A DNA stretch of 64,000 nucleotides, from positions 2,004 to 66,003 of the forward strand of contig JBMNNX010000004.1 of the NCBI GenBank assembly GCA_050942745.1, written 5' to 3'. Under the pieces are notes generated by a model. That model saw only the letters and a program-made list of their open reading frames with translations. It did not search any database and was not told where the DNA came from. A program made the translations under genes and the position numbers. The DNA comes from Myxococcales bacterium (GTDB lineage: Bacteria > Myxococcota > Myxococcia > Myxococcales > UBA5297). Position 1 is the stretch's first letter; each line of letters begins with the position of its first letter. Shown piece by piece: positions 12,596-59,488 of this stretch.

Positions 12596-13839
12596 CGCCC
12601 CGCCTCCGCGCCCGGCGGCGACTCGGCGATTCGAACCGGTGCGCCGTCGGCGAGGTCGGTGTGGCCGGCGACGAGGACGCGCGCCGCGTCGGGGAGCTTC
12701 GCCTCGATCGCCGCGCGGTCGCCGTCGCGGGCGACGACGACGGCCGGGACCCAGCGGGCCACTCCATCGACCATGACGAACAGGCCGCTCTCGACCTTGC
12801 CTGTCGGTTGCAGCCGGGTCAGCACGGCGATGCCCGGGACGACGGTGGCCTGCGCGAGCTCGCGCCGCACGACGACGACCTCGGCGTATCTGCCCGGCAG
12901 CCAGGAGGGCGGCGGCGACTCGACGAGCGCCTCCACGGTGACGATCCGCTGCTCGCGGCTGACCTCGCCGGCGATGCCGGTGATCTTCGCGGGCAGGCCT
13001 TCGCCCGACTCGAGCGCTGCGCCCTGCGTGTGGCCGGCGGCAGCTCCGGCGAACACGCGCACCGTCGCGCTGACCTCGAGGCCGCCGATGTCCATCTCGG
13101 GCACCTGGAAGCGCACGCGCAGCGGCGAGGTCGCCACCAGGCGCACCAGCCGCGCGCCGGCCTGCACGATAGCGCCGGGATCGACGTAGCGATCGGCGAT
13201 GCGCCCGGCGAACGGCGCGCGCACCTTGCTCTCGACGCTGCGCTTGTCGAGCAGGCGCACCCGCGCGCGGGCCTCGGCGCCGCTGGCGGCCGCGGCGTCG
13301 GCTGCTGCCGCCAACGCCGCCACCTTTGCCCGCTGCTGCGCGAGCTCTTGGTCGCTGACCAAGCGCTTGGCGGCGAGCGGCTCGAGGCGCGCGGCCTCCT
13401 CGGCGGCGAGGTCGTGCTCGACGCGGGCCCGCTGCTCCTCGGCCGCCCGGGCGGCCACCTGAGCCTCGGCTTCGGCTATCTGCTCGCGAGCGTCTACGGG
13501 GTCGAGCTCGGCGAGGACCTGGCCGGCGCGGACGGTGTCGCCGACGCGGACGTGCACCGCGACCAGGCGGCCCGGGTAGAAGGCCGAGATGTCGGCGGCG
13601 TCGGCGTCGAGCTCGCCGGGATAGCTGCGCCGCTCGGTGATCGAGGCGCGGGTCACCTCGGCGACGGCGACCGGGATGACCCGCGGGCCTGCGCCTCCTT
13701 GGCCGCCCGGAGCGCGCTCTTTCGAGGAGAAGGCGAACGACGCGCCGATGGCCGCGACGCCCAGGGCCACGACGGCCCAGCCGAGCCGCGAGCGCAAGCG
13801 TGAGGGTTCAGGTGCGGTGTCGATCGAGGAGACGGGCAT
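12592..13839 (-). CDS. RND efflux periplasmic adaptor (membrane fusion protein, HlyD family)
   Basis: 415-aa ORF with an N-terminal TM anchor, a coiled-coil hairpin (AEAEAQVAARAAEEQRARVEHDLAAEEAARLE) and beta-barrel regions. Its TGA overlaps the RND ATG (12592-12595). Confidence 0.9.
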   Translation of the reverse strand: MPVSSIDTAPEPSRLRSRLGWAVVALGVAAIGASFAFSSKERAPGGQGGAGPRVIPVAVAEVTRASITERRSYPGELDADAADISAFYPGRLVAVHVRVGDTVRAGQVLAELDPVDAREQIAEAEAQVAARAAEEQRARVEHDLAAEEAARLEPLAAKRLVSDQELAQQRAKVAALAAAADAAAASGAEARARVRLLDKRSVESKVRAPFAGRIADRYVDPGAIVQAGARLVRLVATSPLRVRFQVPEMDIGGLEVSATVRVFAGAAAGHTQGAALESGEGLPAKITGIAGEVSREQRIVTVEALVESPPPSWLPGRYAEVVVVRRELAQATVVPGIAVLTRLQPTGKVESGLFVMVDGVARWVPAVVVARDGDRAAIEAKLPDAARVLVAGHTDLADGAPVRIAESPPGAEAGR

Positions 13840-14046
13840 CGAGTTGCGCCGGAGTGTCGATGATGGGGCCGCTGGATGCGACGGGCCGGCGGTGAGAGCC
13901 GAAGCGCCCGCGCGTGGGCGTCACCGTAGCACAAGGGGGGCGGGCGCGAGGCGCCTGAAGTCGACTCGGCAAGGACGCTCCGGGCCTCTCGGCGGGCAAG
14001 CAGCAGACCGAATTCTTGGCATGGCGGTCAGATCGGCGGCTCGCGG

Positions 14047-14270
14047 CCACTAATTTAGTTCCGAACGGGGTGGGCACCCTCCGCTGGGAACTAATTTAGT
14101 CCCGGAGCGAGGCTCCCTCGCCCGTTCGAGAACCAAAACTGATAGAAATCGGGCGTTCAGGCCGCCCGCTCGAACGAAATTAGTTCCCGAGTGGCCTCGG
14201 CTATCTCGGTCTCGAACTAAATTAGTTCGCGGCAGGTCAGCCCCCCTTCGACTCGAACTAATTTGGTTCC
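14047..14270. repeat. Periodic array of 15-16 bp AT-rich palindromes (consensus GAACTAATTTAGTTC)
   Basis: Copies at 14047-14062, 14087-14102, 14172-14187, 14214-14228 and 14255-14270. A degenerate candidate lies at 14130-14145. Centre-to-centre spacing is about 40-42 bp. The array lies between the efflux operon start (13839) and the upstream gene end (14497). Confidence 0.8.
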
Positions 14271-14496
14271 CCGCGGCGTGGACCGATGAGCCCCAGTCTT
14301 CGGCAAAGCAGCGGACCGGACGGCGCTTCGTCCCTCCTGCCTCGGGTTTCCTCCAGGAGAAAAATGGACGGCGGAGCTCCAGCTGGACGGCGGAGCTCGC
14401 CAGCCTAAGCTCGCTCGTAGAGACCCGCAGGCGGCTCGTTGCCGAGCTCAGCGAAGGCGAAACGAATCGGGCACTGCGGAGCTGGGCGGCGCCGCT

Positions 14497-15891
14497 TCAA
14501 GTCGGCTCGAGCGGCGTGTCGAACGTTCCCCAAGCGCGTAGCGTCTGGCCTGCCCGGATCCCGGCGCCTTGGATGACGATCTCGAATTGTCCGGAGACTC
14601 GGGACGACGAGTAGGTCGCCTCCAGCCACCAGCGAGTGACCTCATCGCCGCTCTCGGCGATGCCGCAACGCCGGAAGTACAGACTCTGCCAAGCCAGGGG
14701 GAGGCTCGCCGCGAAAGTGCTCCAACCGTTGTCGTGGGTGTCGAAACGCAGAATTGCGCCCGGCGGGTCTTGGCAGTTGATGGTGATTGTGCCTCCTGCC
14801 GAGGCGCCGCTGACGCCGAACTCCAGGTTGGGTGCCCAGTACGGCATTTGGATGGCTGCAAAATCGGACGAGACCCCGTATTGCGCGAGAATGCTCGTGC
14901 CCTGAGCGAGCACCGTCCCGTCGAGCGCCCAGGTCATGAGGTTGGGCGAGTCGACGCATTGGCCCTGGTCCGAGCATACATAGGGCGCGTTGCAGGAGCC
15001 GCAGTTGCCCCCACAGGCGCTCATGCCGCACTCCCTCCCTCCGCACGAGCAGCACTCGTCGCCCTGGCAGCCACGCTCGCCGCAGCTCTCCTTGATTTCC
15101 ACTCTCGAGCCGCGGCAGTCGAACCACCAGACGTCGCCGAGCTCGCATGCGTACGTCACGTGCGCGTCCTCGTCGCAGGTGCAGAACCCGTTGCGGCAGG
15201 TCGTGCCGGGGCCCACGCAGGAAGCGCCCTCACAGCAGAGCTGCCCGGCGTTGCCGCAGGGCTGACAGTAGCCCGCAACGCAGGCGAGGCCCGTGTTGCA
15301 GGTCAAGCCTACGCAGCAAGGCTGTTCGCGGGCGCCGCAGGAGGTGGTCGCTTGGCAGACCCCGCCGACGCAGGAGAGGCCTGTGTTGCAGGCTGAGCCT
15401 GCGCAGCACGGCTGCCCGCTGGAGCCGCAGGAGGTGGTCGCTTGGCAATACCCGCCGACGCAGGAGAGACCCGTGCTGCAGGCTGAGCCTGCGCAGCAGG
15501 GCTGCCCGCTGGAGCCGCAGGCGGTGGTCGCTTGGCAAAACCCGCCGACACAGGAGAGGCCCGTGTTGCAGGCCGAGCCGCTGCAGCACGGCTGCCCGCT
15601 GGCGCCGCAGTCGGTGGCGCCTTGGCAAGTCCCGCCGATGCAATCGAGGCCCGAATTGCACGCGGTGCCGTTGCAGCAGTCCTCGCCACTTCCGCCACAA
15701 GAGCCTTCGGCCTGGCACCTGCCAAAGGAGTCACAGGTCTCGCCGGGATTGCAGCCCGGTGAGCACTCACCGCCGCAGCCGTCGTGGCCGCAAACGCGCT
15801 CATCGCAGTGCGGGACGCATGCGTCCGCCAAGTCAGAGGTCGAGTCGCACGCCGCGAGGGCCAGCGCGAGCAGGAAAACGCTGTGCTTCAT
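14497..15891 (-). CDS. Secreted cysteine-rich repeat lipoprotein
   Basis: ORF 14497..16032 trimmed to M48 (15891), which has the RBS aagggggaccgcccATG. Signal/lipobox MKHSVFLLALALAAC. About six tandem 33-aa units CG.SGQPCC.GSAC.TGLSCVGG.CQATT (roughly nt 15105-15702). C-terminal non-repeat domain. Confidence 0.8.
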   Translation of the reverse strand: MKHSVFLLALALAACDSTSDLADACVPHCDERVCGHDGCGGECSPGCNPGETCDSFGRCQAEGSCGGSGEDCCNGTACNSGLDCIGGTCQGATDCGASGQPCCSGSACNTGLSCVGGFCQATTACGSSGQPCCAGSACSTGLSCVGGYCQATTSCGSSGQPCCAGSACNTGLSCVGGVCQATTSCGAREQPCCVGLTCNTGLACVAGYCQPCGNAGQLCCEGASCVGPGTTCRNGFCTCDEDAHVTYACELGDVWWFDCRGSRVEIKESCGERGCQGDECCSCGGRECGMSACGGNCGSCNAPYVCSDQGQCVDSPNLMTWALDGTVLAQGTSILAQYGVSSDFAAIQMPYWAPNLEFGVSGASAGGTITINCQDPPGAILRFDTHDNGWSTFAASLPLAWQSLYFRRCGIAESGDEVTRWWLEATYSSSRVSGQFEIVIQGAGIRAGQTLRAWGTFDTPLEPT

Positions 15892-15992
15892 GGGCGGTCC
15901 CCCTTCTGTCAAAAGGCGGCGAGGATACCCGACGGCCCACCGCCGAGACCAGGGCCGAGGCCTACCCTCCGCCGCTGCCCTGGCCACTTTAC

Positions 15993-16035
15993 ATCGTGTC
16001 GTGATGACACTAAGATGGTGTCGAAAAAACACGAA
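15993..16035. promoter_or_regulatory. Two adjacent predicted NrtR operators (ATCGTGTC-gtgat-GACACTAA and ATGGTGTC-gaaaa-AACACGAA)
   Basis: Sites at 15993-16013 and 16015-16035, each with a GTGT-N7-ACAC core like the pncB site. They lie directly upstream of the nrtR RBS and ATG (16047). Confidence 0.6.
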
Positions 16036-16046
16036 GGAGCGAGCGG

Positions 16047-16736
16047 ATGAGCTACACCTACGAACACCCCCGCCCCGCGCTGACGGTCGACTGCGTCGTC
16101 TTCGGCATGGACGACGAGGACCTGAAGGTCCTGCTCATCGAGCGCGGCGTCGAGCCCTTCAAGGGACGCTGGGCGCTGCCCGGCGGCTTCGTGCAGCTCG
16201 ACGAGAGCCTCGAGGACGCGGCGCGCCGCGAGCTGAAGGAGGAGACCGGGCTCGAGAAGGTCTTCCTCGAGCAGCTCTACACCTTCGGCGAGCCCGGGCG
16301 CGATCCGCGCGGGCGCGTCGTCTCGGTCGCCTACTACGCGCTGGTGAAGCTGGCCGACTACACGGTTCAGGCGGCTACCGACGCCAGCGGCGCGGCCTGG
16401 TTCCCGGTCTGGGACACGCCCTCGCTCGCCTTCGACCACGGGCGCGTCCTCGAGACCGCGCTCGAGCGGCTGCGCGGCAAGGTGCGCTACAAGCCCTTGG
16501 GCTTCGAGCTGCTGCCGCCGAAGTTCACGCTCACGCAGCTCCAGCGGCTCTACGAGAAGATCCTCGAGCGCCCGCTCGACAAGCGGAACTTCCGCAAGAA
16601 GGTGCTCGCGATGGACCTGCTCATCGAGACCGACGAGGTCGAGCAGGACGTCGCCCACCGCGCGGCGCGCCTCTATCGCTTCGACCAGAAGAAGTACCGG
16701 GCCCTGGAGAAGAAGGGCTTCAACTTCGAGCTGTAG
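16047..16736 (+). CDS. nrtR: NrtR-family Nudix-related transcriptional regulator (Nudix domain plus C-terminal winged helix)
   Basis: 229 aa. Intact Nudix box [24 protein letters not shown]. The C-terminal part ([27 protein letters not shown]...RLYRFD) is typical of the NrtR wHTH domain. Palindromic operators lie upstream of it and of pncB-nadE. Confidence 0.85.
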
Positions 16737-16849
16737 CGAAGGGCGCGCGTCGGTGCGCCCTCGGTGAATCGGTCTGGCCTCGACCGCTCGCTGCAACGCG
16801 AGCAGGGCGCCCTCGGCACGAAGCGGAGCGGCGACACGGGAGGTGCGTC

Positions 16850-17602
16850 TTGAAGAGCGGGTGCGCGAGCTTCGACGTCGCCGGCGGCTCGGTCGCGGGG
16901 CGCCACCACGCGCGCGCTGGCCGCAACTGCCAGGACGCGTTCGCTTGGCGGGTTACCGAGGCCGGCCTCGTCGCCGCGGTCTGCGACGGCTGCAGCGCCG
17001 GCGCGCACAGCGAGGTCGGCGCCAGGCTCGGGGCCGAGCTGCTCTGCGAGCAGGTCGCGCGCGGGCTCGATGGCGCCGAGCCGCTCGCCGCGCTCGTCGA
17101 ACGCGCGCGCTGCGGGCTGCTCGACCACCTGGCGCGGCTCGTCGACGGCGCCGCCGCGCCGGGCGCGCGCGCCGCCTTCGTTCACGACCACCTGCTCTTC
17201 GCCTGCGTGCTCGCGGTCGTGCGCGCCGACGAATTCGCCGTCTTCCACGCCGGCGACGGCGTCTTCACCATCAACGGCGAGGCCCGTGCCCTCGGCCCGT
17301 TCCCGGACAACGAGCCGCCCTACCTCGGCTACGCGATGCTCGACGGCGAGGACGAGCGCTGGCGGTTCGAGCTCGCGCGCGAAGGCTCGACCTCCGCGAT
17401 CGGCGCCCTCGCGCTGGGGACCGACGGCGCTCTCGATCTCGTCGTCGGCGCCGGGGCGCCGGTCGCGGCGTGGCTCGCCGAGGAGCTCGTCTTCCGCAAC
17501 CGCGACGTCGCGCGCCGCCGGCTGTGGGCCTGGGGCCGCGACCACCTGCTCGACGACGACGCGACGCTCGTGCTGCTGCGCCGCGCGCGAGGGGAGGGCT
17601 AG
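16850..17602 (+). CDS. PP2C-family protein phosphatase (PP2C_2-like)
   Basis: 3' part of ORF 15293..17602 (KSGCASFDVAGGSVAGRHHARAGRNCQDAFAW...VCDGCSAG...GTDG). Probable TTG start at 16850, 6 nt after GGGAGG. The rest of that 769-aa ORF is antisense to the Cys-rich gene. Confidence 0.75.
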   Translation: MKSGCASFDVAGGSVAGRHHARAGRNCQDAFAWRVTEAGLVAAVCDGCSAGAHSEVGARLGAELLCEQVARGLDGAEPLAALVERARCGLLDHLARLVDGAAAPGARAAFVHDHLLFACVLAVVRADEFAVFHAGDGVFTINGEARALGPFPDNEPPYLGYAMLDGEDERWRFELAREGSTSAIGALALGTDGALDLVVGAGAPVAAWLAEELVFRNRDVARRRLWAWGRDHLLDDDATLVLLRRARGEG

Positions 17603-17604
17603 CG

Positions 17605-19484
17605 ATGCAGGTCTTCCTCAACGGCAAGCGCGTCAAGCTCGACCCCGCGCGCTCGCTCGGGAAAGGCGGCGAGGCCGACGTCTTCGACATCGGCGGCGAC
17701 CGTGCCCTCAAGCTCTTCAAGACGCCCGACCACCCCGACTACCAAGGCCAGCCGCACGAGCAGCAGGCGGCCGAGGCGCGCCTCGCCGAGCAGCAGCGCA
17801 AGCTGCGCGCTTTTCCAGCGCGGCTCCCCGCCGCGGTCGTCGCGCCGGAGGAGCTCGCGACGGACAAGGCCGGGCGCCGAATCCTCGGCTACGCGATGCG
17901 CCGCGTCGCCTCGACCGAGCCGCTGCTGCGCTTCGCCGACCCCGCCTTCCGCCGCGCCGGCGTCCCCGGCAACCAGGTCGTGCGCGTCTTCGAGCGCCTG
18001 CACCGCGCCGTCGAGGAGCTGCACCGCGCCCAGGTCGTCATCGGCGACTTCAACGATCGCAACGTGCTCGTCTGCGGCGAAAAGCCCTTCCTCATCGACG
18101 CGACAGCTTCCAATTCGCGGGCTTTCTGTGCGGCGTCTTTACCGATCGCTTCGTTGATCCACTGCTGTGCGATTCACAGGCGCCGGCGCTGATCCTCGAG
18201 CGGCCGCACACCGCGGAGTCCGACTGGTACGCCTTCGCCGTGCTGCTGATGCAGTCGCTGCTCTTCGTCGGGCCCTACGGCGGAGTCCACAAGCCGAAGG
18301 ACCCCGCGCGCCGGGTGCCGCCGTCGGCGCGGCCGCTGCGCCGGCTCACAGTCTTCCACCCCGAGGTCGTCTACCCCAAGCCCGCGGCGCGCCTCGACAC
18401 CCTGCCCGACGAGCTGCTGCAGGTCTTCCACCGCGTCTTCGAGCACGACGAGCGCGCCGCCTTTCCGCTGCCGATCCTTCAATCGCTGCGCTTCGAGGCC
18501 TGCCCGCGCTGCGGAGTCGAGCACGCCCGGCTCGTCTGTCCTGCCTGCAGCCCGAGCGCGGCGATGCGGCCGAGCGTGGCTATCGAGGTGCGCGGCGAGG
18601 TCGTCTGCCGCCGCCTCCTCCAGACGCGCGGGCTCATCGTCCACGCCGCCGCCGATTCCGGGAAGCTGCGCTGGATAGTCCACGAAGCCGGCGCCTATCG
18701 CCGTGAGGACGGGCGCGAGGTGCTGCGCGCGCCGCTCGATCCGCGCCTGCGCTTCGGCACCCTCGGCGACCGGACGCTCATCGGGCGCGGCGCCGAGCTG
18801 CTCACCGTCTCGGCGAGCGGCGAGGAGCGCCTCGCCGTCGACGCCGGGCGCGGGCCGGTCTTCGGCGCCGACGGCGAGCGTCGGCTCTGGGTGTGCGACG
18901 GGCGCCTGTGGCGCGACGGCGACGTGCGGCTCGCGGGCAGGGCCGAGCCCGAGTGCGTCGGCGAGGTGCTCGCTGGCCAGACGCGGATCTGGGCCGGGCC
19001 GCGCTTCGGCCTCGGCCTCTACCGCGCCGGCGCGCTCTCGGTCGCCTTCCTCTTCGAGGGCCGGCGGCGCGGCCTGAACGACTCGCTGCGCCTGCCTGCG
19101 CTGCGCGGCGAGCTGCTCGACGCCGAGTGCTTCCTCGACGAGCAGCGCGCGTGGCTCCTGCTCGCCCTGAGCGCCGGCGGCCGCACCCGCAACCTCTGCC
19201 TGGTCTGGTCGCGCGCCGGCGAGCTCGAGGCGTGCGCCGAAGCCGAAGCGGGCGACGGCGGCTGGCTCGGGACGCTGGGGGCCAAGGTCGCCACCGCCGG
19301 GATGCTGCTGGCCGCGACCGACGCCGGCCTGGTGCGCCTGGAGGTGCGCGGCGGCCGCGTCGAGAAGACCCGCGAGTTCCCCGACACCGAGCCCTTCGTC
19401 AGCGCCGACTGCCGGTTGCTGATCGGCCCAGACGGCCTGGCCGTGGTGAAGCCCCGAGAGATCGCAGTCCTGCAGATGAAGTGA
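17605..19484 (+). pseudogene. YegI/TerY-P-type atypical Ser/Thr kinase with C-terminal zinc ribbon; reading frame broken by a 1-nt deletion near 18100-18101
   Basis: N-terminal part sits in the frame of ORF 16843..18192 (MQVFLNGKRV...GKGGEADVF...ALKLF...VIGDFNDRNVLVCGEKPFLIDA). It continues in the frame of ORF 17070..19484 (DSFQFAGFLCGVFTDRFVDPLL...CPRCGVEHARLVCPAC...). Restoring one base gives LIDADSFQF. Confidence 0.75.
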
Positions 19485-19502
19485 ACCGAAAGGAGAGGAA
19501 CG

Positions 19503-20561
19503 ATGCCCGCCAAGACGCTGCCCTTGCCGCCCTTCTTCGAGCCGAAAAGCGCCGAGCGCTATGACTACAACCCCGACCAGCAGCGCCTCTTCGTCGAGGC
19601 GGCGCGCTGGCGCCGTGCCCACGGGATAAGGCCTTCGGGCTCGGACAAGCGCAACATCCACCTGCTGCTCATCGACCTGCAGAAGGACTTCTGCTTCCCC
19701 GAGGGCACGCTGTACGTCGGCGGGCGCAGCGGCCGCGGCGCGCTCGAGGACAACCGGCGCATCGCGGAGCTCATCTACCGCAACCTCGCGCACCTCACGC
19801 AGATCACGGCCACGATGGACACGCACTTCGCCTTCCAGATCTTCTTCCCGTCGTTCTGGGTTGACGCGAACGAGCAGCCGCTCGCGCCGTACCGCGAGGT
19901 GACGGTGGAGCAGATCGACCGCGGCGAGGTGCGCCCGAACCCGGCCGTCGCCGCGTGGCTGTGCAACGGCAACTACCCGTGGCTGCTCAAGCAGGCGCGC
20001 CACTACTGCGCCGAGCTGGAGAGGAGCGGCAAGTACCGGCTCTACCTCTGGCCGCCGCACTGCATCCTCGGCAGCGCCGGGCACGCGCTGGCCGGCGTGG
20101 TCCACGAGGCGCGCATGTTCCACTACTACGCGCGCGGCGCGCAGTCCTGGGTCGAGGTCAAAGGCGGGAACGCGCTCACCGAGAACTACTCGGTGCTGCG
20201 GCCCGAGGTGCTCACGCGGCACGACGGCGCGCCGCTCGCTCAGCGCAACACCGCGTTCGTCAAGACGCTGCTCCAGTCCGACGCGGTGATCATCGCCGGC
20301 CAGGCCGCCAGCCACTGCGTCAAGTCGACCATCGAGGACCTGCTCAACGAGATCGCCGCGCAGGACGCGGCCCTCGCGCGCAAGGTCTACATCCTGGCCG
20401 ACTGCATGTCGGCGGTGGCCATCCCCGACGGCAAGGGCGGCTTCACCGCCGACTTCACCCCGGAGGCGGAGCGGGCGTTGCAGACCTTCGCGGCCGCGGG
20501 AATGCACGTGGTGCGCTCGACCGACCCGATGGGGAGCTGGCCGGACATGCGGCTGGATTGA
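19503..20561 (+). CDS. Isochorismatase-family hydrolase, nicotinamidase-like (long form)
   Basis: 352 aa. Catalytic-triad context LLLIDLQKDF (Asp), ASHCVKST (Cys) and an MDTH metal-site-like motif. RBS aaaggagagg. Starts 18 nt after the kinase stop. Confidence 0.8.
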   Translation: MPAKTLPLPPFFEPKSAERYDYNPDQQRLFVEAARWRRAHGIRPSGSDKRNIHLLLIDLQKDFCFPEGTLYVGGRSGRGALEDNRRIAELIYRNLAHLTQITATMDTHFAFQIFFPSFWVDANEQPLAPYREVTVEQIDRGEVRPNPAVAAWLCNGNYPWLLKQARHYCAELERSGKYRLYLWPPHCILGSAGHALAGVVHEARMFHYYARGAQSWVEVKGGNALTENYSVLRPEVLTRHDGAPLAQRNTAFVKTLLQSDAVIIAGQAASHCVKSTIEDLLNEIAAQDAALARKVYILADCMSAVAIPDGKGGFTADFTPEAERALQTFAAAGMHVVRSTDPMGSWPDMRLD

Positions 20562-20589
20562 CGGGCCGGCGAGACGCCGAGTCTCCCAA

Positions 20590-20881
20590 CCTCGGCGGCG
20601 GTCGACGGGAGGAAAGAACGAAGGGGAGGCGAGCAAACCGACTGGAGGGCGGAGCTCCAGGTGCGCCACCGCCGGTGCCCGGCGCGAGCGCTCGAGCAGC
20701 GTGGGCGGGACGGAGGCGGTCGCAGGCTGGGCCGGCGGGACCTCGGTGGCGTTCGACGGGCGGAGGAGAAGCAAGGGGAGGCGACCAAACCGATGGAGGG
20801 CGGAGCTCCGACTCCGCCACCGCCGGTGCCCGGCGCGAGCGCTCGAGCAACGTGAGCAAGACCGAGGCGGTCCCAGGCTGG
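20590..20881. repeat. Tandem duplication of a ~140-bp intergenic unit (copies 20590-20729 and 20741-20881)
   Basis: Both copies read cctcgg.ggcg.tcgacggg...aaggggaggcga.caaaccga.tggagggcggagctcc...gccaccgccggtgcccggcgcgagcgctcgagca...aggcggtc.caggctgg. Related motifs occur at 14364-14400 and 24326-24385. Confidence 0.8.
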
Positions 20882-20997
20882 AGCGGCAAACGCCCGCCCC
20901 CCTTACCTCGCGTCCGGCGGTCGCGGGTTGGAGACGGCGGTCGAGAGGCTGGCGGTCCTGAGAGGGCTGAAGTGCAAATCGAACGGAGGAGCAGCAA

Positions 20998-21791
20998 ATG
21001 AGCTCAAAAGCGAAGAAGCCGGAAGTCGTGAAGCTGTTCGAAGAAGCCGAGGCCGAAGGTGTGCTGTCGCCCGAGTCGATGCAGGTGCTGGGCGCGGTCG
21101 ATCTCGGCGCGCAGATCCAGGCGGGCCTGGGAATCGGCGTTGACGACGTCGAGGCGAGCGAGGTGCTGCTGCTGACGGTGATGCCCGACGACTCGGGCTC
21201 CATCGCCGCGGCCGGCAACGAGCAGGCGGTGCGCGACGGGCACAACCTGGTGCTCGACGCGCTGCTCGAGTCGAAGCAGCGCGACTGCATCCTCGCCCAC
21301 ACCCGCTACCTCAATGGCGAGGTGCTCTTCCCGTACCGGCCCATCCTCGAGGCGGTGCGGATGACGCGGCAGAACTACCAGGCGAACCTGGGCACGCCGC
21401 TCTACGACCAGGCGGTCGTGCTGCTCGGCTCGGTGCTCGCCAAGACGCAGGAGTTCAGCTCGAACGGGGTCGCCGTGCGGTCGGTGACCCTGCTCATCAC
21501 CGACGGCGCCGATCAGCACTCGGTGCGCTCGAAGCCGCGCGACGTCGCCGCGCTCGTGCGCGATCTGCAGCGGGCCGAGAGCCCATCGTCGCCGCGATGG
21601 GCATCGCCGACGGGTTCACCGACTTGCGGCGCGCGTTCCGCGAGATGGGAATCGAGGACCGCTGGATCCTCACGCCCGGCAACAGCCCGAGCGAGATCCG
21701 CGGGGCGTTCCAGGTCTTCTCGCAGTCGGCCGTGCGCGCGAGCCAGGCCGCCTGTTTCAAGCAGGCTGCGCTGGGCGGCTTCGTCAACTGA
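20998..21791 (+). pseudogene. von Willebrand factor A domain protein (TerY/YegL-like); frame broken by a 1-nt deletion near 21583-21584
   Basis: ORF 20998..21876 is vWA-like up to VTLLITDGADQHSVRSKPRDVAALVRDLQRAES, then turns to junk. The natural C-terminus (IVAAMGIADGFTDLRRAFREMGIEDRWILTPGNSPSEIRGAFQVF...) is in ORF 21597..21791. The break is at a C-run (agcccatc). Confidence 0.7.
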
Positions 21792-21865
21792 CGTCCGGCT
21801 AGCCCGCGGCGCCGGCGAGGGCGGCGCCGCGGCGAGCTCGGGTACAAGGCTCCGAGGAGCGCATC

Positions 21866-22944
21866 ATGAGCCCTGAAGCCGTGAGCGCCGCCGGAAGCGC
21901 GGCGCGGGAGCGCGACCCCGAAGACTTGGTCACCGGAACCCTGCTCGGGACCGCGCTCGGCGACGCCCTCGGTCTTTCGGCCGAGGGGATGAGCGCGGCG
22001 GCGCTGCAGCGGCCTTTCGGGACGCTCGACCGCTTCCGGCTCCTCGGGCGCACCGGGTTCGTCTCCGACGACACGGAGCAGAGCGCGCTGGTCGCCCAGT
22101 GCCTCGTCCGCGCGCGGACGGCTTCGGCCGAGGTCGACGCGCGAGCGCTGTGTCCGACTGTTTCGGCGCGCGCTGGCCGGCTGGCTCCTGCGGCTGCCCT
22201 TCGGCATCGGCCTGGCGACCGCGCGTGCCTGTCTTCGCGCCCTGACCGGCGCGCGGGTGACCGGAATGCGGAGCGCGGGCGCCGGCGCCGCGATGCGCGC
22301 GCCCATCGTCGGCGCTGCGCTGCGCGATTCTCCCGACCTTCGGCGCGAGCTGAGCCGGCGGCTGGCGCAGGTGACGCACCTCGCTCCGCGCGCGGTAGAC
22401 GGAGCGGTCTACGCGTCCGATCTCGCGGCCCTTGCCGCCTCGGCCTCGAACGGTGCCGCGCCGCTCGAGCTCGCCGAAGGAGCCGCGCGCGCTGTCGCAG
22501 GGGGCGAGCTCGCGCGAGCGATCGCGCGGTCGGCGACGGCTGACCCGCGATTCGGCGGAGCTGCCGCAGGCCGCGGCCGAGCTCGGGACGTCGGCGTTCG
22601 TCATGCACACCGTGCCGCTTGCGGTCTTCTGCTTTGCGCGCTGGGGACGCGAGGCGCTCGTCGCCATCCAGCGCGCAATCGCCGCCGGTGGGGACACCGA
22701 CAAGACCGCGGCTATCGTCTGCGCGTGGGGCGGGGCTTTGGGCGGCGCGGGCTCGCTGCCGGGCGCGCTCATCGCGCGGATCAACGACGGACCTTTCGGT
22801 CCGTCGCATCTGCGCGCCCTGGGGCGGGCGATTGCACTCGGAGGACCTGCGCCGCGCTATTCAGAGGCCTGCGCGTTCGCGCGCAACCTCGCGCTCCACC
22901 CGGTCGTCCTCGCGCACGGTCTGGGGAGGCTGGTGCCCTGGTAG
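21866..22944 (+). pseudogene. ADP-ribosylglycohydrolase (DraG/ARH family) with two apparent +1 frameshifts
   Basis: Three ORF pieces in three frames. 21866.. carries LGTALGDALGLSAEG and SDDTEQSALVAQCL. 22257.. carries FRRALAGWLLRLPFGIGLAT and SAGAGAAMRAPIVG. 22432..22944 carries GTSAFVMHTVPLAVFCF and AGGDTDKTAAIVCAWGGALGG. The breaks lie at about 22105-22155 and 22530-22560. Confidence 0.7.
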
Positions 22945-23056
22945 CACTGCGTCGCCACACACCTCCAGTGCGCCGACAGCCTTGTCGCTGAGTAAGCGCG
23001 CTGCCACAATCGGCCCGTCAGGAATTGGGGGCCGGACAAAACAAGGGTTCCAGCAC

Positions 23057-24169
23057 ATGAATCTCTTTCGAGTTGTCGCCGCCAGCGCTGCCATCGCCGT
23101 TGTCTCGGGGTGCGCCACCGTGAAGGTCGATCCCGGCCGCTGCGACAGCGTCTCGTCGGTCGCGGTCGTCGGCTACGACGTCGATTTCCTGCGCAATGCC
23201 CAGGAGAGCCCCAACGAGATCGTCAACATCATCAATACGGCCAAGGCCATCACGCAGCTCGCCTCCGGCGACTACGCGCGTCAGGAGGAGGAGCAGTCGG
23301 TCATCGCCTACGGCGTCATCGTCGAGGGCCTCGCGAAGGAGTTCGGCTGGAAGATCGTGCCGTACGAGCAGGTGGTCGCGAACCCGGTCTATCGGCGGCT
23401 GCACGAGAGATACAAGAACCGTATGTCGAACGGCATCCCGCGGATGACGGACCTGCTCGGCGGAGGCGCGTCACGCTCCTTGGAGCCGGCCGAGCAGGCG
23501 GAGCTGGCCCAGGCGCTCGGAGTGGAGGGGCTCGTCGCGCTGGAGGTCTCGTACCGGCGGACCCGGTGTGCCGAGTTCCACGTCAACTACGCGGACGTCG
23601 GCCACGACCACCTCCAGGCGCGCATCCAGCTCACCGTCATGGACGGAAACGAGAAGCCTGCCTGGCGCGACACCAACGCGGTCGGCGATCCGTCGGTGAC
23701 GCGGATGCCGGTGGTGATGGGGGTCGAGACGGATTCGAACCTGAGCCAGGCGATGCGAGAGGCCACCGTATCTGCGGTCGGCACGCTGTTCGGCCGCTTC
23801 GAGTTCGCGCGCGCCGACGCGCAGAGGCGGGCCGCTGCTCAAGCGGCTGCAGGCCAACCGGCGGACGCGCAGTCGCCCGAAGCTGCGACCGCGGCGACTG
23901 CGCCGGCTCCGGCAACTCCGGCGACCGCGCCCGAGGCGGCGCCGGTCACGACTCCGGCGGTCGAAGCCGCGCCGGCTGCGGCTCCTGTGGCCGAAGCCAC
24001 GCAGGATGCGGCTCCTGCGGCCGAAGCCACGCAGGATGCGGTGCCTGCGGCCGAGTCGCAGGCGCCCGAGGCTGCGCCGGCCACAGCTCCCGCCGGCGAG
24101 CCGCCCGTGCCCGAGGCCGCGCCTGCGGCCGCTCCGGCGACCGAAGCGCCTGCGCCGCAGGCCGAATAG
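23057..24169 (+). CDS. Lipoprotein of unknown function with an Ala/Pro-rich low-complexity C-terminal tail
   Basis: In frame in ORF 22619..24169. Signal/lipobox MNLFRVVAASAAIAVVSGC. About 260 aa of globular sequence, then an APAPATPATAPEAAP... tail. Confidence 0.75.
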   Translation: MNLFRVVAASAAIAVVSGCATVKVDPGRCDSVSSVAVVGYDVDFLRNAQESPNEIVNIINTAKAITQLASGDYARQEEEQSVIAYGVIVEGLAKEFGWKIVPYEQVVANPVYRRLHERYKNRMSNGIPRMTDLLGGGASRSLEPAEQAELAQALGVEGLVALEVSYRRTRCAEFHVNYADVGHDHLQARIQLTVMDGNEKPAWRDTNAVGDPSVTRMPVVMGVETDSNLSQAMREATVSAVGTLFGRFEFARADAQRRAAAQAAAGQPADAQSPEAATAATAPAPATPATAPEAAPVTTPAVEAAPAAAPVAEATQDAAPAAEATQDAVPAAESQAPEAAPATAPAGEPPVPEAAPAAAPATEAPAPQAE

Positions 24170-24568
24170 CCGCAGGACCTCCGAACCGCGGGCTCGCTTC
24201 GAGGCCGCAAGCAATCGCAAACGAGGCGCCGGCCCTGAGTCGTGGGGCCGGCGCTCCTGTTCTTGGCGCTCGCCGTCTTGTTCGTCCGGCCACGTTCGCT
24301 GGCGCCGGCACGAAGTGCGCCGATCCGACCGATGGACGGGGCTCCAGCTCTGCCACCGCCTCGGGCCCAGCGCTCGGTCAGGTGCCCACACCGTGAGTTG
24401 GCGGCCGCGCGAAGGGAAAGTGGTGGGGAGCGCGGGATCGCCCCTCACTTCGGGGCGACCGATGGTCGCCCCTACGCTCCTAATTAACACCTTCATCTGT
24501 GCGAGGTCGTAGCTGCCCAAGAGCCCGCGAAGAGCTCGGCGTGGCCGCGACGGGCTCTCGCCCCCGGC

Positions 24569-24642
24569 CTCGCAAGCTCGGCCTGCTGCGCCTGTCGAAG
24601 GGGCTCGGGCTGACGGGTGTTGGTTCAAGGCCACAGCCGGCC
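24569..24642. repeat. 74-bp dispersed repeat, family B, copy 1
   Basis: cgcaagctcggcctgctgcgcctgtcgaaggggctcgggctgacgggtgttggttcaaggccacagccggcc. By eye about 85-90% identical to 25464-25537, same orientation. Confidence 0.8.
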
Positions 24643-24769
24643 AACGGACCGGAGACAAGCTCGGAGTGTCCGGGCGGCGCGAGGTCCGAGGAGCGCACGG
24701 GCGCGCGCTGCTTGGTTGCGTCGCGTCGGCACGTCTCAACCTTTGATGGAGGAGGGCGAGTGCGACGCT

Positions 24770-38909: not shown

Positions 38910-39487
38910 GGTGCCTCCTCTTCGGCAGGCAGGCCGAGCTCGGCCGGGTCGAAGGGGAGCTCGGCCGCGTCGAGCGGCAGCTCCTTGCCGGACGCGTCGA
39001 AGAGCGCGACGCACTCCGGGTCGTCGCGCGGCCCGCTCTGGACCGCGACGAGGAACACCTCCTGTGGACGCGCGGCCTCGAGGTAGGTCCGCGAGACCTC
39101 GGCACAGGTCGGCTTCCGGTTGGAACGCCTGCCTATCGAGCAGGTCACCGTCAGCAGATCGGGAAGCGGCCCGTTGGACTTCATCTTGGCCTGGTCTATC
39201 AGCGCCCTGAGCTCCTTGAAGTCGAGGACCATGGCCTGCTCGCAGCCCAGCTTTCGGAGCTCGGCCGTGCCGGGCGCGGTCGTGGCCTTCTGGAGTATCG
39301 AGACCGAGCCGCCGATGAGCTTCATCGCCTTCTGCCCCTCTTCGCTCGCCGCGACCCGCCAGATGAGGATGCCGACCGCGAGCAGCCCGAGGAGGAAGAC
39401 CCCGCCGACGACGCCGAGGGCGATGAGGCAGCCGTTGGTCTTCTTCTTCTGCGGGGCGCCAGGGGTCGAGGCTTGGACAGGCGGCAT
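38906..39487 (-). CDS. Membrane-anchored hypothetical protein
   Basis: 193 aa. Strong RBS aaggagccacacATG. Lys-rich N-terminus then a TM helix (CLIALGVVGGVFLLGLLAVGILIW). Soluble domain with 4 Cys. Coupled to the methyltransferase. Confidence 0.7.
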   Translation of the reverse strand: MPPVQASTPGAPQKKKTNGCLIALGVVGGVFLLGLLAVGILIWRVAASEEGQKAMKLIGGSVSILQKATTAPGTAELRKLGCEQAMVLDFKELRALIDQAKMKSNGPLPDLLTVTCSIGRRSNRKPTCAEVSRTYLEAARPQEVFLVAVQSGPRDDPECVALFDASGKELPLDAAELPFDPAELGLPAEEEAP

Positions 39488-39974
39488 GTGTGGCTCCTTT
39501 GTGGTCGCGCGATCGGCACGCTAGCACGGCCCGCGGGACAGGCTTTCGTCCGGATGGCGTCTCGGACTTGCGGCTATAGGTGAATTCGGCGAACTGCTCA
39601 GTCCGCACAATTCCCGGAGCCTGCGACCATCGCAAGGCCGCCTCGAATTTTGGCTGCGCGCCGGGAGGGGCGGGGTCGGGCGGCGGTCGCGACGAAGGGC
39701 GGCAGGCGAGACTCCCGACTCATGGTCTGCAGCAGTGCAGGGCCACTGTTGATCGCGCAAGGCAGAAGGGTTCGGCGCGGCGCACGGGCTCTCGCGTCGA
39801 ACCCCGAAGAAGCAGGCCGGGCCTGCGATTGCTGCACGCTCGCGCGCGGCCCTGAGACCTCTCGCGCGGGCGGGCGCGCCGGCTGGGGCGAGAACGTCGC
39901 CGACAGGGCCTCTCCTACTCGAATGCTTGGCGCATCGTCGGCCGGCGCCCACGTTCTCGTGCGGAGGGATGCCC

Positions 39975-40403
39975 ATGACCGCAATAAGCGAGCTGTTGAA
40001 GACTCATCCGCAGAAGCCCACGCACCACTTCGACGTGATCACCGCCTGCATCGAGGCCTGCTTCGAGTGCGAGCAGGTCTGCATCGGCTGCGCGGATGCC
40101 TGCCTTGCCGAACAGCAGGTGGCCGAGCTGCGCGAGTGCATCCGCTACAACCTCGACTGCGCCGATCTATGCGCGGCGACCGGCCGGCTCATCGCACGGC
40201 AGGCGCGGCCCGACCCCTCGCTGTGGCGGGCGACGCTGGAAGCCTGCGCCCAGGCTTGCAGAAGCTGTGGCGCCGAGTGCGCCAAGCATCAGGACCGGCA
40301 CGAGCACTGCCGGGTCTGCAAGGAGGCTTGCGAGCGCTGTGAACAGGCGTGCATGCGGGCCCTGCAGGAAATGCCGACCGGCGGCGCTGAGAGCCGGCAC
40401 TGA
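39975..40403 (+). CDS. Cysteine-rich four-helix-bundle protein (DUF326 / copper-storage-like)
   Basis: ORF 39927..40403. Repeated C..C....C..C helices (ACIEACFECEQVCIGCADACL, CADLCAATG, ACAQACRSCGAECAKH, CRVCKEACERCEQAC). The ATG at 39975 lies 6 nt after GGAGGG. Confidence 0.75.
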   Translation: MTAISELLKTHPQKPTHHFDVITACIEACFECEQVCIGCADACLAEQQVAELRECIRYNLDCADLCAATGRLIARQARPDPSLWRATLEACAQACRSCGAECAKHQDRHEHCRVCKEACERCEQACMRALQEMPTGGAESRH

Positions 40404-40661
40404 GACGCAGGGCGAGTCGTCGAATACGAGCCTCTCGGCGCTGCCTGGCCGGTCGAAGCGACGCCAGGCCAGCGCCGGCCCTTCCTTATGTAGAAGCGTG
40501 CAGCCGCTCGCCTCTACGGTGTGCCTGCCCGAGCTTCTCGAGCATGCCTGCCGGGCGGGCCAACGGGCGTCAGCGCGACTGGTGGCGCCTTGCCTCCCGG
40601 CTTGCGCCCCTCGCGGCCCTTGCCAGCGTTGGCACTCTGCCGCGTTCGAAAGCAGAAATCC

Positions 40662-40898
40662 GTGGTCGCGACGCTTGAGCTGGCCGAGGCCGGCGCGCGC
40701 GGACTCTCACGCCGAGGAAGCGACGTCTATTGGAACATCGCCGATTGCACCTTGAGCGCGAACTGGCAGTTCGACTGCACGGCCGCGAATTCGACGGTGA
40801 AGCGGATCGGCGTCGTCGTGCGCTTCTTCCAGGGTGGGCGCTGGTATCGGGTCGGCGTCCAATCCGCGCTCTACGACCCATCCAACATCGGAGAGTGA
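40662..40898 (+). CDS. Small hypothetical ORF abutting pilW (possible minor-pilin remnant)
   Basis: Only the 3' ~60 codons of ORF 40521..40898 look coding (DVYWNIADCTLSANWQFDCTAANSTVKRIGVVVRFFQGGRWYRVGVQSALYDP). No prepilin leader in any frame. GTG at 40662 is a guess. The stop is 2 nt before the pilW ATG. Confidence 0.3.
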   Translation: MVATLELAEAGARGLSRRGSDVYWNIADCTLSANWQFDCTAANSTVKRIGVVVRFFQGGRWYRVGVQSALYDPSNIGE

Positions 40899-40900
40899 CG

Positions 40901-42271
40901 ATGAGGCGTGGCTTGGGCGCTCTGCGCGCGAGGCTGGGCATGACTCTGATGGAGCTGATGGTCGGCGTGGCCGTCGGCTCGATCGTGCTCGTGGCGGTGG
41001 CGGCAATCTCGGTTTCGCAGAGCAGGAGCTTCAGCAACGGGCGTCGCCTGCGCGAGCGGCAGAGCAGCGCGCGGTTTGCGCTCGACTACCTCGAGCGCAC
41101 GGTCCGCCAGGCTGGCTTCGCCATCGACCCCCAGTTCGCGTTCGACTTCGACTTCTACAACTGCCAGTCGCCTGAAGGGACGAACCTCATCTACGCGAGC
41201 GCGGCGTGCGCCCAGGCAAACCCCATCCGCGATCCGGGCGCAGCGCCCGACGAGCTGGTGACGGTGTCGCGCAGCCTCCACTACCGGGTCGGCACGACGA
41301 TCGACCAGGCGAACGTCCTCGGCGACGCCTGGGTGATAGCGAGCGCGGCGGAAGACCACCTGATGCTGCGGATGCACGCCGGCGACTCGCTGCCGATGGG
41401 CCAGGTGCTGCACCTGATGTGCACTGGGGGGAGAATCTACACCTACGTGACCGTCGCCGAGAGCGTCACCGCCTCGGCCGAGGGGGAACAGCGGGTCGAG
41501 TTGGCCGCCGCCGCCGAGACACCCTTCCGCCAGAACGGCGTGGCCAAGGCGGCGTGCCTCGATGCCGGGACGGCGATCGCCTACAAGGTGAACCGGTCGC
41601 ACTTCTTCATCTTCTCGGACACCAACGCGAACCTGCCGGCCGAAGCCAAGAACACGACGGGCCTGCCGCGAACCTACCTGGTTCTCGACACCGGGACCGA
41701 CCGCAACCTCGACAACGCGATCGACGAGGCCGACCTGATCCCCATAGCGCCGGACATCATCGACCTGCAGCTCGCCTACGTGCTGAACAACGGCACCGTC
41801 GTCGGCGACGACGAGGGCGAAGCCGAGCTGACCGCGATCTTCGATAACGAGCCGCTCAAATCCGACTGGAGCAAGCTCACCCTGGACGAGAGGCAGCGGA
41901 GTACCCGGCCCTTCCCCGTTGAGCTGCGGAGCGACCAGTCGTTCGGGTTTTTCGACACGCCGGTCCTGTTCGACACAACGCCGACGAGCCAGTTTCGCCA
42001 GTTGACCTATCCGGGCAACATCCGCGCGGTGCGCATCACGCTCATCGCGCGCACCTCGACGCCGATGCCCGAAGGGCCGAGGACCGAGGAGTTCCCGCCC
42101 GGTCCCGAGGCCTGGTTCGAGAACCGAAAGGGCTTCCTGCTCTCGGCCGCGCCGGACGGCTACAAGCCGTTCCTGCCGGCGGCCCCGCTACGCGAGCGCT
42201 ACGGCTACGAGGTGGTCCAGACCACCGTCAACATTCCGAACCTGCAGACGAGCGGGCACTTCATGTTCTGA
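40901..42271 (+). CDS. pilW: Type IV pilus minor pilin, PilW-like
   Basis: In frame in ORF 40730..42271. Prepilin-type N-terminus RLGMTLMELMVGVAVGSIVLVAVAAI followed by SARFALDYLERTVRQAGF. Confidence 0.8.
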   Translation: MRRGLGALRARLGMTLMELMVGVAVGSIVLVAVAAISVSQSRSFSNGRRLRERQSSARFALDYLERTVRQAGFAIDPQFAFDFDFYNCQSPEGTNLIYASAACAQANPIRDPGAAPDELVTVSRSLHYRVGTTIDQANVLGDAWVIASAAEDHLMLRMHAGDSLPMGQVLHLMCTGGRIYTYVTVAESVTASAEGEQRVELAAAAETPFRQNGVAKAACLDAGTAIAYKVNRSHFFIFSDTNANLPAEAKNTTGLPRTYLVLDTGTDRNLDNAIDEADLIPIAPDIIDLQLAYVLNNGTVVGDDEGEAELTAIFDNEPLKSDWSKLTLDERQRSTRPFPVELRSDQSFGFFDTPVLFDTTPTSQFRQLTYPGNIRAVRITLIARTSTPMPEGPRTEEFPPGPEAWFENRKGFLLSAAPDGYKPFLPAAPLRERYGYEVVQTTVNIPNLQTSGHFMF

Positions 42272-48662: not shown

Positions 48663-49189
48663 CGGGCGGGCTCGAAGCGAACGATGAACGAAGGCCGCCG
48701 CGGGGAGGCTCGCTCGAGGTCGGGAAGGCCCGCTTCGAAGACTGCTCGAGCTCGTCGCCGGTCGACTTCGCGCGTATGTAACGGCGCCAAAGCCCGGACG
48801 TTTGCCGCCAGGCCGCTGTTGCGAGGCCGCGTCTTGCGATTGGCTGCCGTCAAACCTGCGAGGCGAATCTTCACTTCGCTCGGCGTCCCGGGGGCCCGCT
48901 GGCCGCGTTGAGACTCGGTGCGCCCGCTACTCGCCCCCATCGCTTGAAGAAGCGCGAGCGAAGAGTCTTCGCACGCTCTCCGGGTACAGCGCGCGGCCAC
49001 GCCGTCGCCGCGCGCTCGTGCTGCTGCGAGCCGCGAGAAGCAAAAAGTGAGGCCCCAGAAATCTGGGCCGGCGCAAGGGCCCTGCTCTGCGCGCGCCGCG
49101 CCGCGGGCTCGTTCGTCGGGGGAGCCTTCGGTTTGCGGCAAAGGCGAGCGACCGAGAGGAGCGACTCTCGAGCAGCCCAGAAACGAGGT

Positions 49190-49220
49190 CGCCCGGCCAG
49201 CAGAAAGGACTGGCCGGGCG
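49190..49220 (-). terminator. Candidate hairpin terminator downstream of the esterase gene
   Basis: 11-bp perfect stem cgcccggccag / ctggccgggcg with a 9-nt loop, about 50 nt after the stop at 49272. On the minus strand it is followed by acctcgtttct, a weak T tract. Confidence 0.35.
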
Positions 49221-49271
49221 AGTCGGTTTCGGTGGCGAGAGCACGGAGGCGCTCGAGCCGATTCCTTGTTG

Positions 49272-50429: not shown

Positions 50430-50786
50430 GGTGTCCTCCATCCTTCAGCCTGCCCCAATTTGAGGTGTTCTCTTGTTTTCAGAGAGCATGTGGCTCGTCA
50501 ACAAGCACCCCGGCCTTTGCTTGCTTGGTTCTTGTGAGCGAATCAGAGTAAGGCGTCGACGCGGGCCATTCTCGGGAGGTCTCGGCCGGGGGCGCGCCTG
50601 GTCTTGGGCACGAGCTGCCGTCTCGACGGTGTGAGCTGCCGAGGCCGCTGCCGGGGTGCGTGATGATTTGCGACACCATGGCGGGCACCCTAGCCGAAAC
50701 TGCACCAGCCCCACGAAAAAGTGTGACGGGCGGCGAAAGGCGGGGAGCCCCGCGCAGTACTTCGCGATCCGGTTTCTCGCCGCGCG

Positions 50787-51623: not shown

Positions 51624-51767
51624 GGCGAGCCGCCTCCCGCGGTTCGAATCCCTTGCCCCAGGCAAAGGCGCGGCGACTGCGGGCGCCCGAGGTCGCGGCG
51701 GCAGGATAGTCACACTCTCCGCGGTAGCTCGCCTGGGCTTGGCGCTCCTCCCCGCCGGCGCTGCGCT

Positions 51768-55361: not shown

Positions 55362-55795
55362 CGTGCGGCGGTCGCCGACGGCCTGTTCGGCGAGGTGTGC
55401 CGCCAGAGGAGCTTTCGGTAGAGCTCTTCGCGACTTGTTGGCTGGCAGGGGCGCCTCCGCGCTCTCCGAATTGCGTCGTCTGAGGGACGGCGAACACGAA
55501 CGTCAAGACGCTATCAGAATCGAGGCGGCCGGCGGGGGAGGGGCCGAGGTTGGCACAGAGGGGTCCGCCGGGCGCATGGACCGGTGCTTCGGTAGGTGCG
55601 ATCGCTTCTCCGAGGGGGTGCGGTCGATTAGTCGAGGGAGTGCGATTGCCTATATGGGTAGTCGCGGTCGGTTGGTCGAGTGGGCGGCGCCGGCGAGACT
55701 CCCGGAAAGCCTGTCGGCCCGAGGTTTCCAACAGCACCGGCTTTGGCACAGAGGGTGACGGCGGCGAACCCTTTCGGCCGGGACGGTCTGCCGCC

Positions 55796-59406: not shown

Positions 59407-59488
59407 CGAGGGTCCGCGTCAGGCGGACGAAGGCGGGAGGCGAGGGCCTCGCTTCGCTCCTTCCAATTGTCGCGCGAGGGCCATCTCG

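Follow-up and report, generated by a model that had tools for sequence, protein, structure and literature searches.

Probable frameshift pseudogenes in a conserved NrtR–PP2C–kinase–nicotinamidase-like–vWA cassette and in two further genes of a Myxococcales bacterium

A 64 kb stretch of the Myxococcales bacterium contig JBMNNX010000004.1 (the whole of which is referred to here as the window) carries a cassette of five plus-strand genes followed by an ADP-ribosylglycohydrolase (ARH) gene, and the reading frames of three of these six genes are broken. The first cassette gene (16047–16736) is intact and encodes an NrtR-like Nudix/winged-helix regulator with matches to the Pfam families NUDIX and NrtR_WHD. 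It is followed by an intact PP2C_2 phosphatase gene (16850–17602; PF13672, E 7e-21), whose 250 amino acid product is NCBI protein MGI5860628.1. The third gene, encoding a kinase, lies in two frames. Its N-terminal part starts with an ATG at 17605 and runs in frame 0 to ...EKPFLIDA at 18100, and the remainder, which comprises the C-lobe, a zinc ribbon and an all-beta C-terminal domain, lies in frame 2 at 18102–19484. The fourth gene is an intact nicotinamidase-like gene of the isochorismatase family (19503–20561), with a weak match to the Pfam Isochorismatase model and the NCBI name 'nicotinamidase' (MGI5860631.1). A spacer of 437 nucleotides (nt) separates it from the fifth, a vWA-like gene with 195 N-terminal codons at 20998–21582 and 68 C-terminal codons (IVAAMGI...GGFVN and a stop) in the −1 frame at 21585–21791. 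The ARH gene (PF03747; 21866–22944) is read in three successive frames. A fourth broken gene, encoding a cyclase–AAA_16–TPR regulator, lies far from the others on the minus strand (51768–55361). At least six frameshifts thus fall in four genes of the window, and about 40 other genes are open.

The G+C content of the window is approximately 72%, and G+C at third codon positions (GC3) marks the coding frame sharply in a GC3 frame plot. Coding phase was called from this plot together with a Viterbi segmentation under a codon-usage model. The codon-usage model replaced a hidden Markov model based on GC3 only, because the latter missed genes with weak bias, including the ARH gene. The plot and the segmentation placed phase switches at 18101/18102, 21578/21579, 22141/22142 and 22538/22539. 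At none of these four switches is there a stop codon for the old frame or a start codon for the new one; at ordinary gene boundaries in the window, a stop and a start both lie within a few bases in every case. A first-pass annotation, made by a model from the sequence alone, had reported these same four breaks, and its coordinates proved correct within the ranges that it gave.

To place the breaks, the genes were compared with their homologues. One genome per species was scanned, which yielded 68 kinase-encoding loci. The kinase family shares a GxGGEA glycine-loop, a lysine and the motifs GDFNDxN and IDADSFQ, followed by a CxxC...CxxC zinc ribbon at residues ~300–316 and then an all-beta domain of ~300 residues. 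Its match to the Pfam Pkinase model is below threshold. An AlphaFold model of a homologue with 65% identity (pLDDT, the predicted local distance difference test score, of 89) matched Ser/Thr kinases in Foldseek with a probability of 1.00. The sequence (F/Y)LIDADSFQF is continuous and nearly invariant in an alignment of 61 kinase homologues, and it is split in the window, where DSFQF follows LIDA only after a shift to the −1 frame. Alignments with the family and with an intact allele place the loss of 1 nt at 18100–18101: one C of the alanine codon GCC is gone (GACGCCGAC to GACGCGAC), so that the frame 0 text ends in ...GDFNDRNVLVCGEKPFLIDA and the −1 frame carries on as DSFQFAGFLCGVFTDRFVDP.... 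The lesion sits inside LIDADSFQF, the DFG-equivalent motif of the kinase catalytic core. The old frame stops 90 nt downstream, at 18190–18192, which gives a product of 195 amino acids. This fragment (P0361) is NCBI protein MGI5860629.1, and the 411/414 amino acid fragment that follows it is MGI5860630.1.

The 90%-identity cluster of the kinase fragments also holds an intact protein of 626 amino acids (P0363) from run SRR25909821. Comparison with orthologues, a check that the first-pass annotation had proposed, showed the kinase to be intact on a sister contig (L086). This contig aligns to positions 17501–19776 of the window with 97.85% nucleotide identity and one gap, which is 1 nt long and located at the lesion; L086 reads GACGCCGACAGC where the window reads GACG-CGACAGC. 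The broken and intact alleles differ by 22 synonymous and 11 non-synonymous changes (dS 0.046, dN/dS 0.18). This ratio indicates that most of the divergence between the alleles accrued under purifying selection and hence that the deletion is recent. Just two of the 115 columns that are conserved in at least 95% of kinase homologues are changed in the window, which is within the range of intact homologues.

The vWA-like gene reads ...LVRDLQRAES and then, in the −1 frame, IVAAMGIADG.... Its homologues read E-[C/S/N]-H-IVAAMGI, with an invariant histidine. In the window, the dinucleotide CC (21583–21584) stands alone between the serine codon AGC (21580–21582) and the isoleucine codon ATC (21585–21587). 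As only CC is left where homologues have the His196 codon CAC or CAT, one base has been lost from this codon, resulting in a −1 frame. The first-pass annotation had placed this break in a run of C residues; with CAC or CAT as the ancestral codon, the CCC run is probably a product of the deletion and not its cause. As a result of the deletion, which lies 3′ of the last MIDAS (metal ion-dependent adhesion site) residue, the C-terminal 68 residues give way to an out-of-frame tail of 97 residues. The unshifted frame runs to 21876, where it overlaps the start of the ARH gene, and the resulting 292 amino acid protein is NCBI MGI5860632.1. Of the 55 columns at which 95% or more of homologues agree, two are changed, one of them being the junction itself, which is again within the range of intact homologues. 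We labelled the gene vWA-like because of its MIDAS-type pattern DxSxS...T...D, with D64, S66, S68, T133 and D169 invariant in the family. No VWA domain match was found for the protein in Pfam, PDB profile or PADLOC searches, a match to VWA_CoxE at E 0.03 was found in two of 16 family members, and a single-sequence AlphaFold model had a pLDDT of 38 and was unusable.

After frame repair, the ARH protein matches PF03747 in one stretch over model positions 1–285 of 287, with 153 bits. Homologues of 340–350 amino acids and 50–58% identity align by tblastn to the first frame as far as ~22117, to the second at ~22143–22526 and to the third from ~22534. These boundaries, together with the codon-model switches at 22141/22142 and 22538/22539, locate two net +1 shifts to 22118–22143 and 22524–22540. 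The first shift corresponds to one extra base or two missing bases, and both were located to variable linkers, not to a single base. The gene is also altered at conserved residues: 8 of 93 conserved columns are changed (mean 1.3 and maximum 4 in homologues), and the near-invariant residues lost include N134A, D168A and G238A. Two shifts and eight conserved-site changes suggest that the damage to the ARH gene is older than the kinase and vWA lesions, and judging by its sequence it looks like the oldest casualty, a separate pseudogene. No ARH gene was found within 10 kb of any of the ~65 related loci, which puts it outside the kinase/vWA cassette. The first-pass annotation had grouped the ARH gene with the kinase and vWA genes in one cluster, and this grouping does not hold for the conserved cassette.

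The minus-strand regulator gene is read from 55361 to 51768 in three frames and, when repaired, encodes a cyclase-like/AAA_16/TPR protein. An intact orthologue of 1188 amino acids (P0121; GCA_002408385.1, ERZ724029) has 88% amino acid identity to it. Across the gene, the two DNA sequences are 90.7% identical and are separated by only two indels, neither of which is a multiple of three: an extra A at ~54840 (+1) and an extra GC at ~53506–53510 (+2), the latter extending a GC repeat. The dN/dS of this gene is 0.33, compared with 0.20–0.22 for two neighbouring genes. No kinase homologue with more than 65% identity was found in GCA_002408385.1, the assembly with the intact cyclase gene, which made it unsuitable as a comparator for the kinase cluster.

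Four of the six frameshifts fall in the kinase, vWA and ARH genes, which make up 3.75 kb of the 64 kb (binomial P = 1.6e-4, or ~3e-3 once the post-hoc choice of window is allowed for). The earlier statement that the frameshifts are concentrated in these three genes therefore stands as far as non-random clustering is concerned, and has to be amended for the two further indels in the cyclase gene. Its statement that long genes of the window are intact was borne out for the RND gene (3.1 kb; ACR_tran, positions 2–1020 of 1021), cheA (2.2 kb) and a 5.8 kb open reading frame (ORF) at 42813–48662. The name pilY1 that it had given to this last ORF was not, as no PilY1 or PilC match was found in Pfam and the only match was a weak one to a STIG1-like model. 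The clustering is most naturally read as an accumulation of lesions in dead or newly dispensable genes, and a special process acting on the cluster is not required.

Frame breaks of this kind could stem from local indel errors that entered the deposited contig during sequencing, assembly or polishing. The source is indeed a metagenome-assembled contig ('MAG: Myxococcales bacterium', also in JGI/IMG), and noise of this type exists in public metagenome-assembled genomes (MAGs): at two of the related loci the cassette genes are split into multiple high-scoring segment pairs (HSPs), NrtR and vWA at L015 and NrtR and PP2C at L021. The breaks at these two loci are scattered, the record titles suggest long-read assemblies, and the splits are probably assembly indel noise. 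We looked up exact ORF products of the window and retrieved matching Logan re-assembly contigs, which are short-read-style and made with a different assembler from that of the window, from five runs (SRR28624430, SRR28624431, SRR28624434, SRR28624435 and SRR31066179). Over 13326–18826, 20820–24647 and 45658–59833, the Logan contigs align to the window without a gap, at 99.97–100% identity. The kinase site is spanned without a gap by contigs from two runs (L001 and L003) and the vWA site by contigs from all five (L006–L010); both ARH sites are present in contigs from three runs (L006–L008), and contigs L079/L080 and L083 span both cyclase sites with no gaps.

The Logan contigs also differ from the window at single-nucleotide polymorphisms (SNPs). 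At position 16945, the only SNP in 16850–17602, the window has T and all four Logan contigs covering the site have C; SRR31066179 has a G at 22642 and SRR28624430 a T at 49041, each differing from the window. The contigs are therefore not copies of the window, and several related haplotypes (at least three) share the indels. Identical indels in independent isolates had been named beforehand by the first-pass annotation as a test of the error explanation, and identical indels were found in independent data, the five Logan runs. That annotation had also suggested that some of the sites are short homopolymers, and this proved incorrect: there is no homopolymer of at least 4 nt at any of the sites, where the longest runs are CC→C, an interrupted CAC, A→AA and (GC)2→(GC)3. 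Errors would moreover be expected to scatter, as they do at L015 and L021, whereas all lesions of the window are in four genes, with some 40 others intact. With all six indels recurring gap-free in differently assembled contigs that carry SNP differences from the window, we consider it very improbable that the breaks are errors.

The shifts could instead be functional, through programmed ribosomal frameshifting, transcriptional slippage or reversible phase variation. Loci of the conflict or defence type are sometimes phase-variable, and two of the six lesions, A→AA and (GC)2→(GC)3, both in the cyclase gene, are of a slippage type. However, the 45 nt on either side of the two −1 sites contain no in-frame X XXY YYZ heptamer, and any repeats at the sites are too short to support phase variation or slippage in transcription. 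Some 60 homologous kinase and vWA genes, as well as the 98%-identical sister kinase allele, are uninterrupted: 56–61 homologues per gene form a single uninterrupted tblastn HSP, and the kinase (residues 1–626) and the vWA-like protein (residues 1–264) are continuous in nearly all of the 68 kinase loci. In addition, the kinase break is within a catalytic motif, and the ARH shifts lie in variable linkers of a gene that is also damaged at conserved residues. A functional role for the shifts is therefore extremely improbable in our view, in agreement with the first-pass annotation, which had ranked programmed frameshifting last.

The order NrtR, PP2C, kinase, nicotinamidase-like, vWA (16047–21791 in the window) is conserved in ~60 of the related loci (L011–L077). 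By record title, these belong to Myxococcota, Cyanobacteria, Patescibacteria, DPANN archaea, Gammaproteobacteria, Planctomycetota, Actinomycetota and Acidobacteriota; some are MAGs, for which the phylum was likewise taken from the title and the binning was taken as given. The NrtR-like protein has full-length matches in related loci and scores 182 bits against the NCBIfam NtrR model, for which the equivalog cut-off is 400. The nicotinamidase-like protein has full-length homologues with 44–78% identity at the same position in related loci. For the three intact cassette genes, the same count of changes in the window at columns conserved to 95% or more gives 0 of 50 (NrtR), 1 of 83 (nicotinamidase-like) and 2 of 31 (PP2C). 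In PADLOC-DB v2, no match was found for the PP2C or vWA-like protein and only weak MkoA and PD-T4-6 kinase-domain matches for the kinase, a result that is to be read with the presence of TerY-P models in that database not established. No kinase homologue was found in a plasmid collection, and a phage collection gave only weak, partial kinase-domain matches to two uncultured phage records. No publication that connects NrtR, nicotinamidase and vWA/PP2C emerged from a literature search, and none that cites the run or protein accessions. The cassette appears to be undescribed and uncharacterised.

Several variants of the cassette and features of its surroundings were observed. In five Cystobacter/Archangium loci (L016, L022, L028, L065 and L067), an insertion of ~5 kb lies between the kinase and nicotinamidase-like genes. 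In cyanobacterial contigs, including Spirulina (L046, L049, L050 and L054), the kinase gene is present, as is PP2C where upstream sequence exists. The sequence downstream of the kinase yielded neither a nicotinamidase-like nor a vWA gene, over ~10 kb in L049 and ~4 kb in L050, and the L046 contig ends directly after the kinase; the cassette may be reduced in L049 and L050. In the window, the spacer between the nicotinamidase-like and vWA-like genes contains two tandem repeat copies of ~151 nt (20615–20917, plus strand), which lie outside the frameshift finding. The copies are 87–89% identical and each contains the palindrome GCGCGAGCGCTCGAGC; a search against Rfam detected no family anywhere in the window, this repeat included. 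The break of all Logan contigs at 20820 is probably due to a 35-mer that the two copies share. Immediately upstream of the cassette, the region 14000–16000 has a lower G+C content (0.64–0.70 versus ~0.72) and two ORFs, 14497–15024 on the minus strand and 15147–16004 on the plus strand, for which no Pfam match was found; it may be foreign or fast-evolving DNA.

We consider it highly likely that the six frame breaks are real small indels that became fixed in a natural population of an uncultured Myxococcales bacterium, and that they mark recent frameshift pseudogenes produced by ordinary gene decay. Real decay was also the explanation ranked first by the first-pass annotation, and it is supported by the recurrence of the indels in independent assemblies and by the intact sister kinase allele. 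By this account, a 1-nt deletion interrupts the catalytic core of the kinase within the DFG-equivalent motif and leaves a stump of 195 amino acids; a second, in the His196 codon, costs the MIDAS-vWA-like protein its last ~68 residues; and two net +1 indels disrupt the ARH gene next to it. The lesions of the kinase and vWA genes are likely to be young, as both genes look to be under purifying selection apart from the indel, and the ARH gene would have been decaying for longer. The set of kinase, vWA-like and PP2C proteins resembles the TerY-P triad, which consists of a TerY-like vWA protein, a PP2C phosphatase and a Ser/Thr kinase with a C-terminal zinc ribbon, according to the summary of Anantharaman et al. 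2012 in PMC11090510. The three proteins may thus form a TerY-P-like phosphorylation switch within the NrtR/nicotinamidase cassette. Loss of one partner would then have made the other dispensable, which would account for lesions in functionally linked genes. Neither the kinase nor the vWA-like protein would be functional, and the phosphorylation switch of this lineage would be turned off. The NrtR, PP2C and nicotinamidase-like genes, which are intact, may keep functions of their own.

A number of points weigh against this interpretation. The five runs may share one site or enrichment culture, so that their independence rests on the SNPs. The count of frameshifts is a minimum, as stretches with weak codon bias, such as 13786–16037 and 39461–40921, were left out. 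No near-identical intact allele was found for the vWA-like gene (best homologue 79%, in a metagenome scan) or the ARH gene (best homologue 58%), the 90% clusters of their fragments have no intact member, and guessed repaired vWA sequences with H, P or R at the junction had no exact match in the collection. The ancestral state of these two genes is accordingly taken from more distant homologues. The loss of kinase and vWA function is deduced from the broken sequences, and the C-terminal kinase fragment of 411/414 amino acids may be translated separately.

The mutations could also be real and their loss of function adaptive instead of neutral, if selection had acted against a TerY-P-like conflict module linked to ADP-ribose on account of its cost or toxicity; counter-selection against a costly or toxic module had also been suggested for this cluster by the first-pass annotation. 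Two linked cassette genes have each been hit once, very recently, with the NrtR, nicotinamidase-like and PP2C genes intact, and the broken alleles are those seen in the five runs. Broken copies are rare among the ~65 related loci, implying that the family is normally maintained, and TerY-P-like modules can act as anti-phage defence, according to PMC11090510, which cites Gao et al. 2020. On the other hand, the unrelated and distant cyclase gene in the same 64 kb has two frameshifts and the ARH gene looks older and independent, so that background decay suffices and counter-selection of a costly module is not needed. No PADLOC defence model matches any cassette protein beyond the weak kinase-domain matches given above, and for the kinase the plasmid collection gave no match and the phage collection only weak, partial ones. 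We regard adaptive loss as possible but unlikely. A narrower version, in which the sensor and signalling arm (kinase and MIDAS-vWA) of an undescribed cassette linked to nicotinamide adenine dinucleotide (NAD) was switched off in a targeted, adaptive manner, seems to us distinctly improbable. If it were true, the cassette would be a new conflict or stress system linked to NAD, coupling a TerY-P-like triad to ADP-ribose sensing by NrtR and NAD salvage by the nicotinamidase, and the broken strain would be a natural loss-of-function variant of it, for which the intact sister provides a comparator.

Ordinary decay, which we favour, has consequences for annotation and for further work. In GenBank, the fragments of the kinase and vWA-like genes are separate coding sequences named 'hypothetical protein', and the vWA-like gene has been given a false product of 292 amino acids. 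The four sites should be treated as true pseudogene lesions and left uncorrected. The kinase and vWA lesions would represent a very recent loss of two cassette partners in a species-level population, with an intact kinase allele circulating in a sister strain. The cassette itself is the more interesting by-product, and as its hosts include culturable Myxococcus, Stigmatella and Cystobacter, it is testable there; Myxococcus xanthus and Stigmatella aurantiaca have intact copies.

Two further observations concern other parts of the window. Logan contigs of different runs all end or start at 54396–54422, inside the cyclase pseudogene, which suggests a repeated k-mer or a polymorphism. A candidate frame change at 37372 was rejected, as it reflects an ORF overlap: an MFS transporter gene stops at 37436 and the next gene, for a membrane protein, starts at ~37471.

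Frameshift pseudogenes are an established concept in free-living bacteria with large genomes. The genes described here share with them small indels that are not multiples of three, intact close relatives and multiple hits in dead genes. Nothing essential sets them apart, and the only point of note is the partnership of two of the dead genes within a single conserved cassette. The ARH gene is comparable to DraG/ARH ADP-ribosylglycohydrolases (PF03747) in that its repaired product spans the whole Pfam model, and differs in being broken twice, in having lost near-invariant residues and in scoring far below the DraG equivalog cut-off (52 versus 337 bits). NrtR proteins were reportedly described by Rodionov and colleagues in 2008 as Nudix-related, ADP-ribose-responsive repressors of NAD-metabolism regulons. 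The cassette is similar in that its first gene has a NUDIX domain (PF00293) and an NrtR winged-helix domain (PF21906) and stands in a set with a nicotinamidase-like NAD-salvage gene; it is different in that its NrtR-like protein falls short of the equivalog cut-off given above and in that the operon also holds a phosphorylation triad. Set against the TerY-P triad of Anantharaman et al. 2012, as summarised in PMC11090510, the cassette likewise encodes a PP2C_2 phosphatase, a kinase whose conserved catalytic motifs precede a zinc ribbon of the form CxxC...CxxC, and a protein that shows a perfect MIDAS-type pattern, DxSxS...T...D. It departs from that summary in the further all-beta domain of ~300 amino acids borne by its kinase, in the lack of a PADLOC or Pfam VWA model match and of ter genes nearby, and in its gene order, with a nicotinamidase-like gene between the kinase and vWA genes and an NrtR-type gene in first position in nearly all of the ~65 loci.

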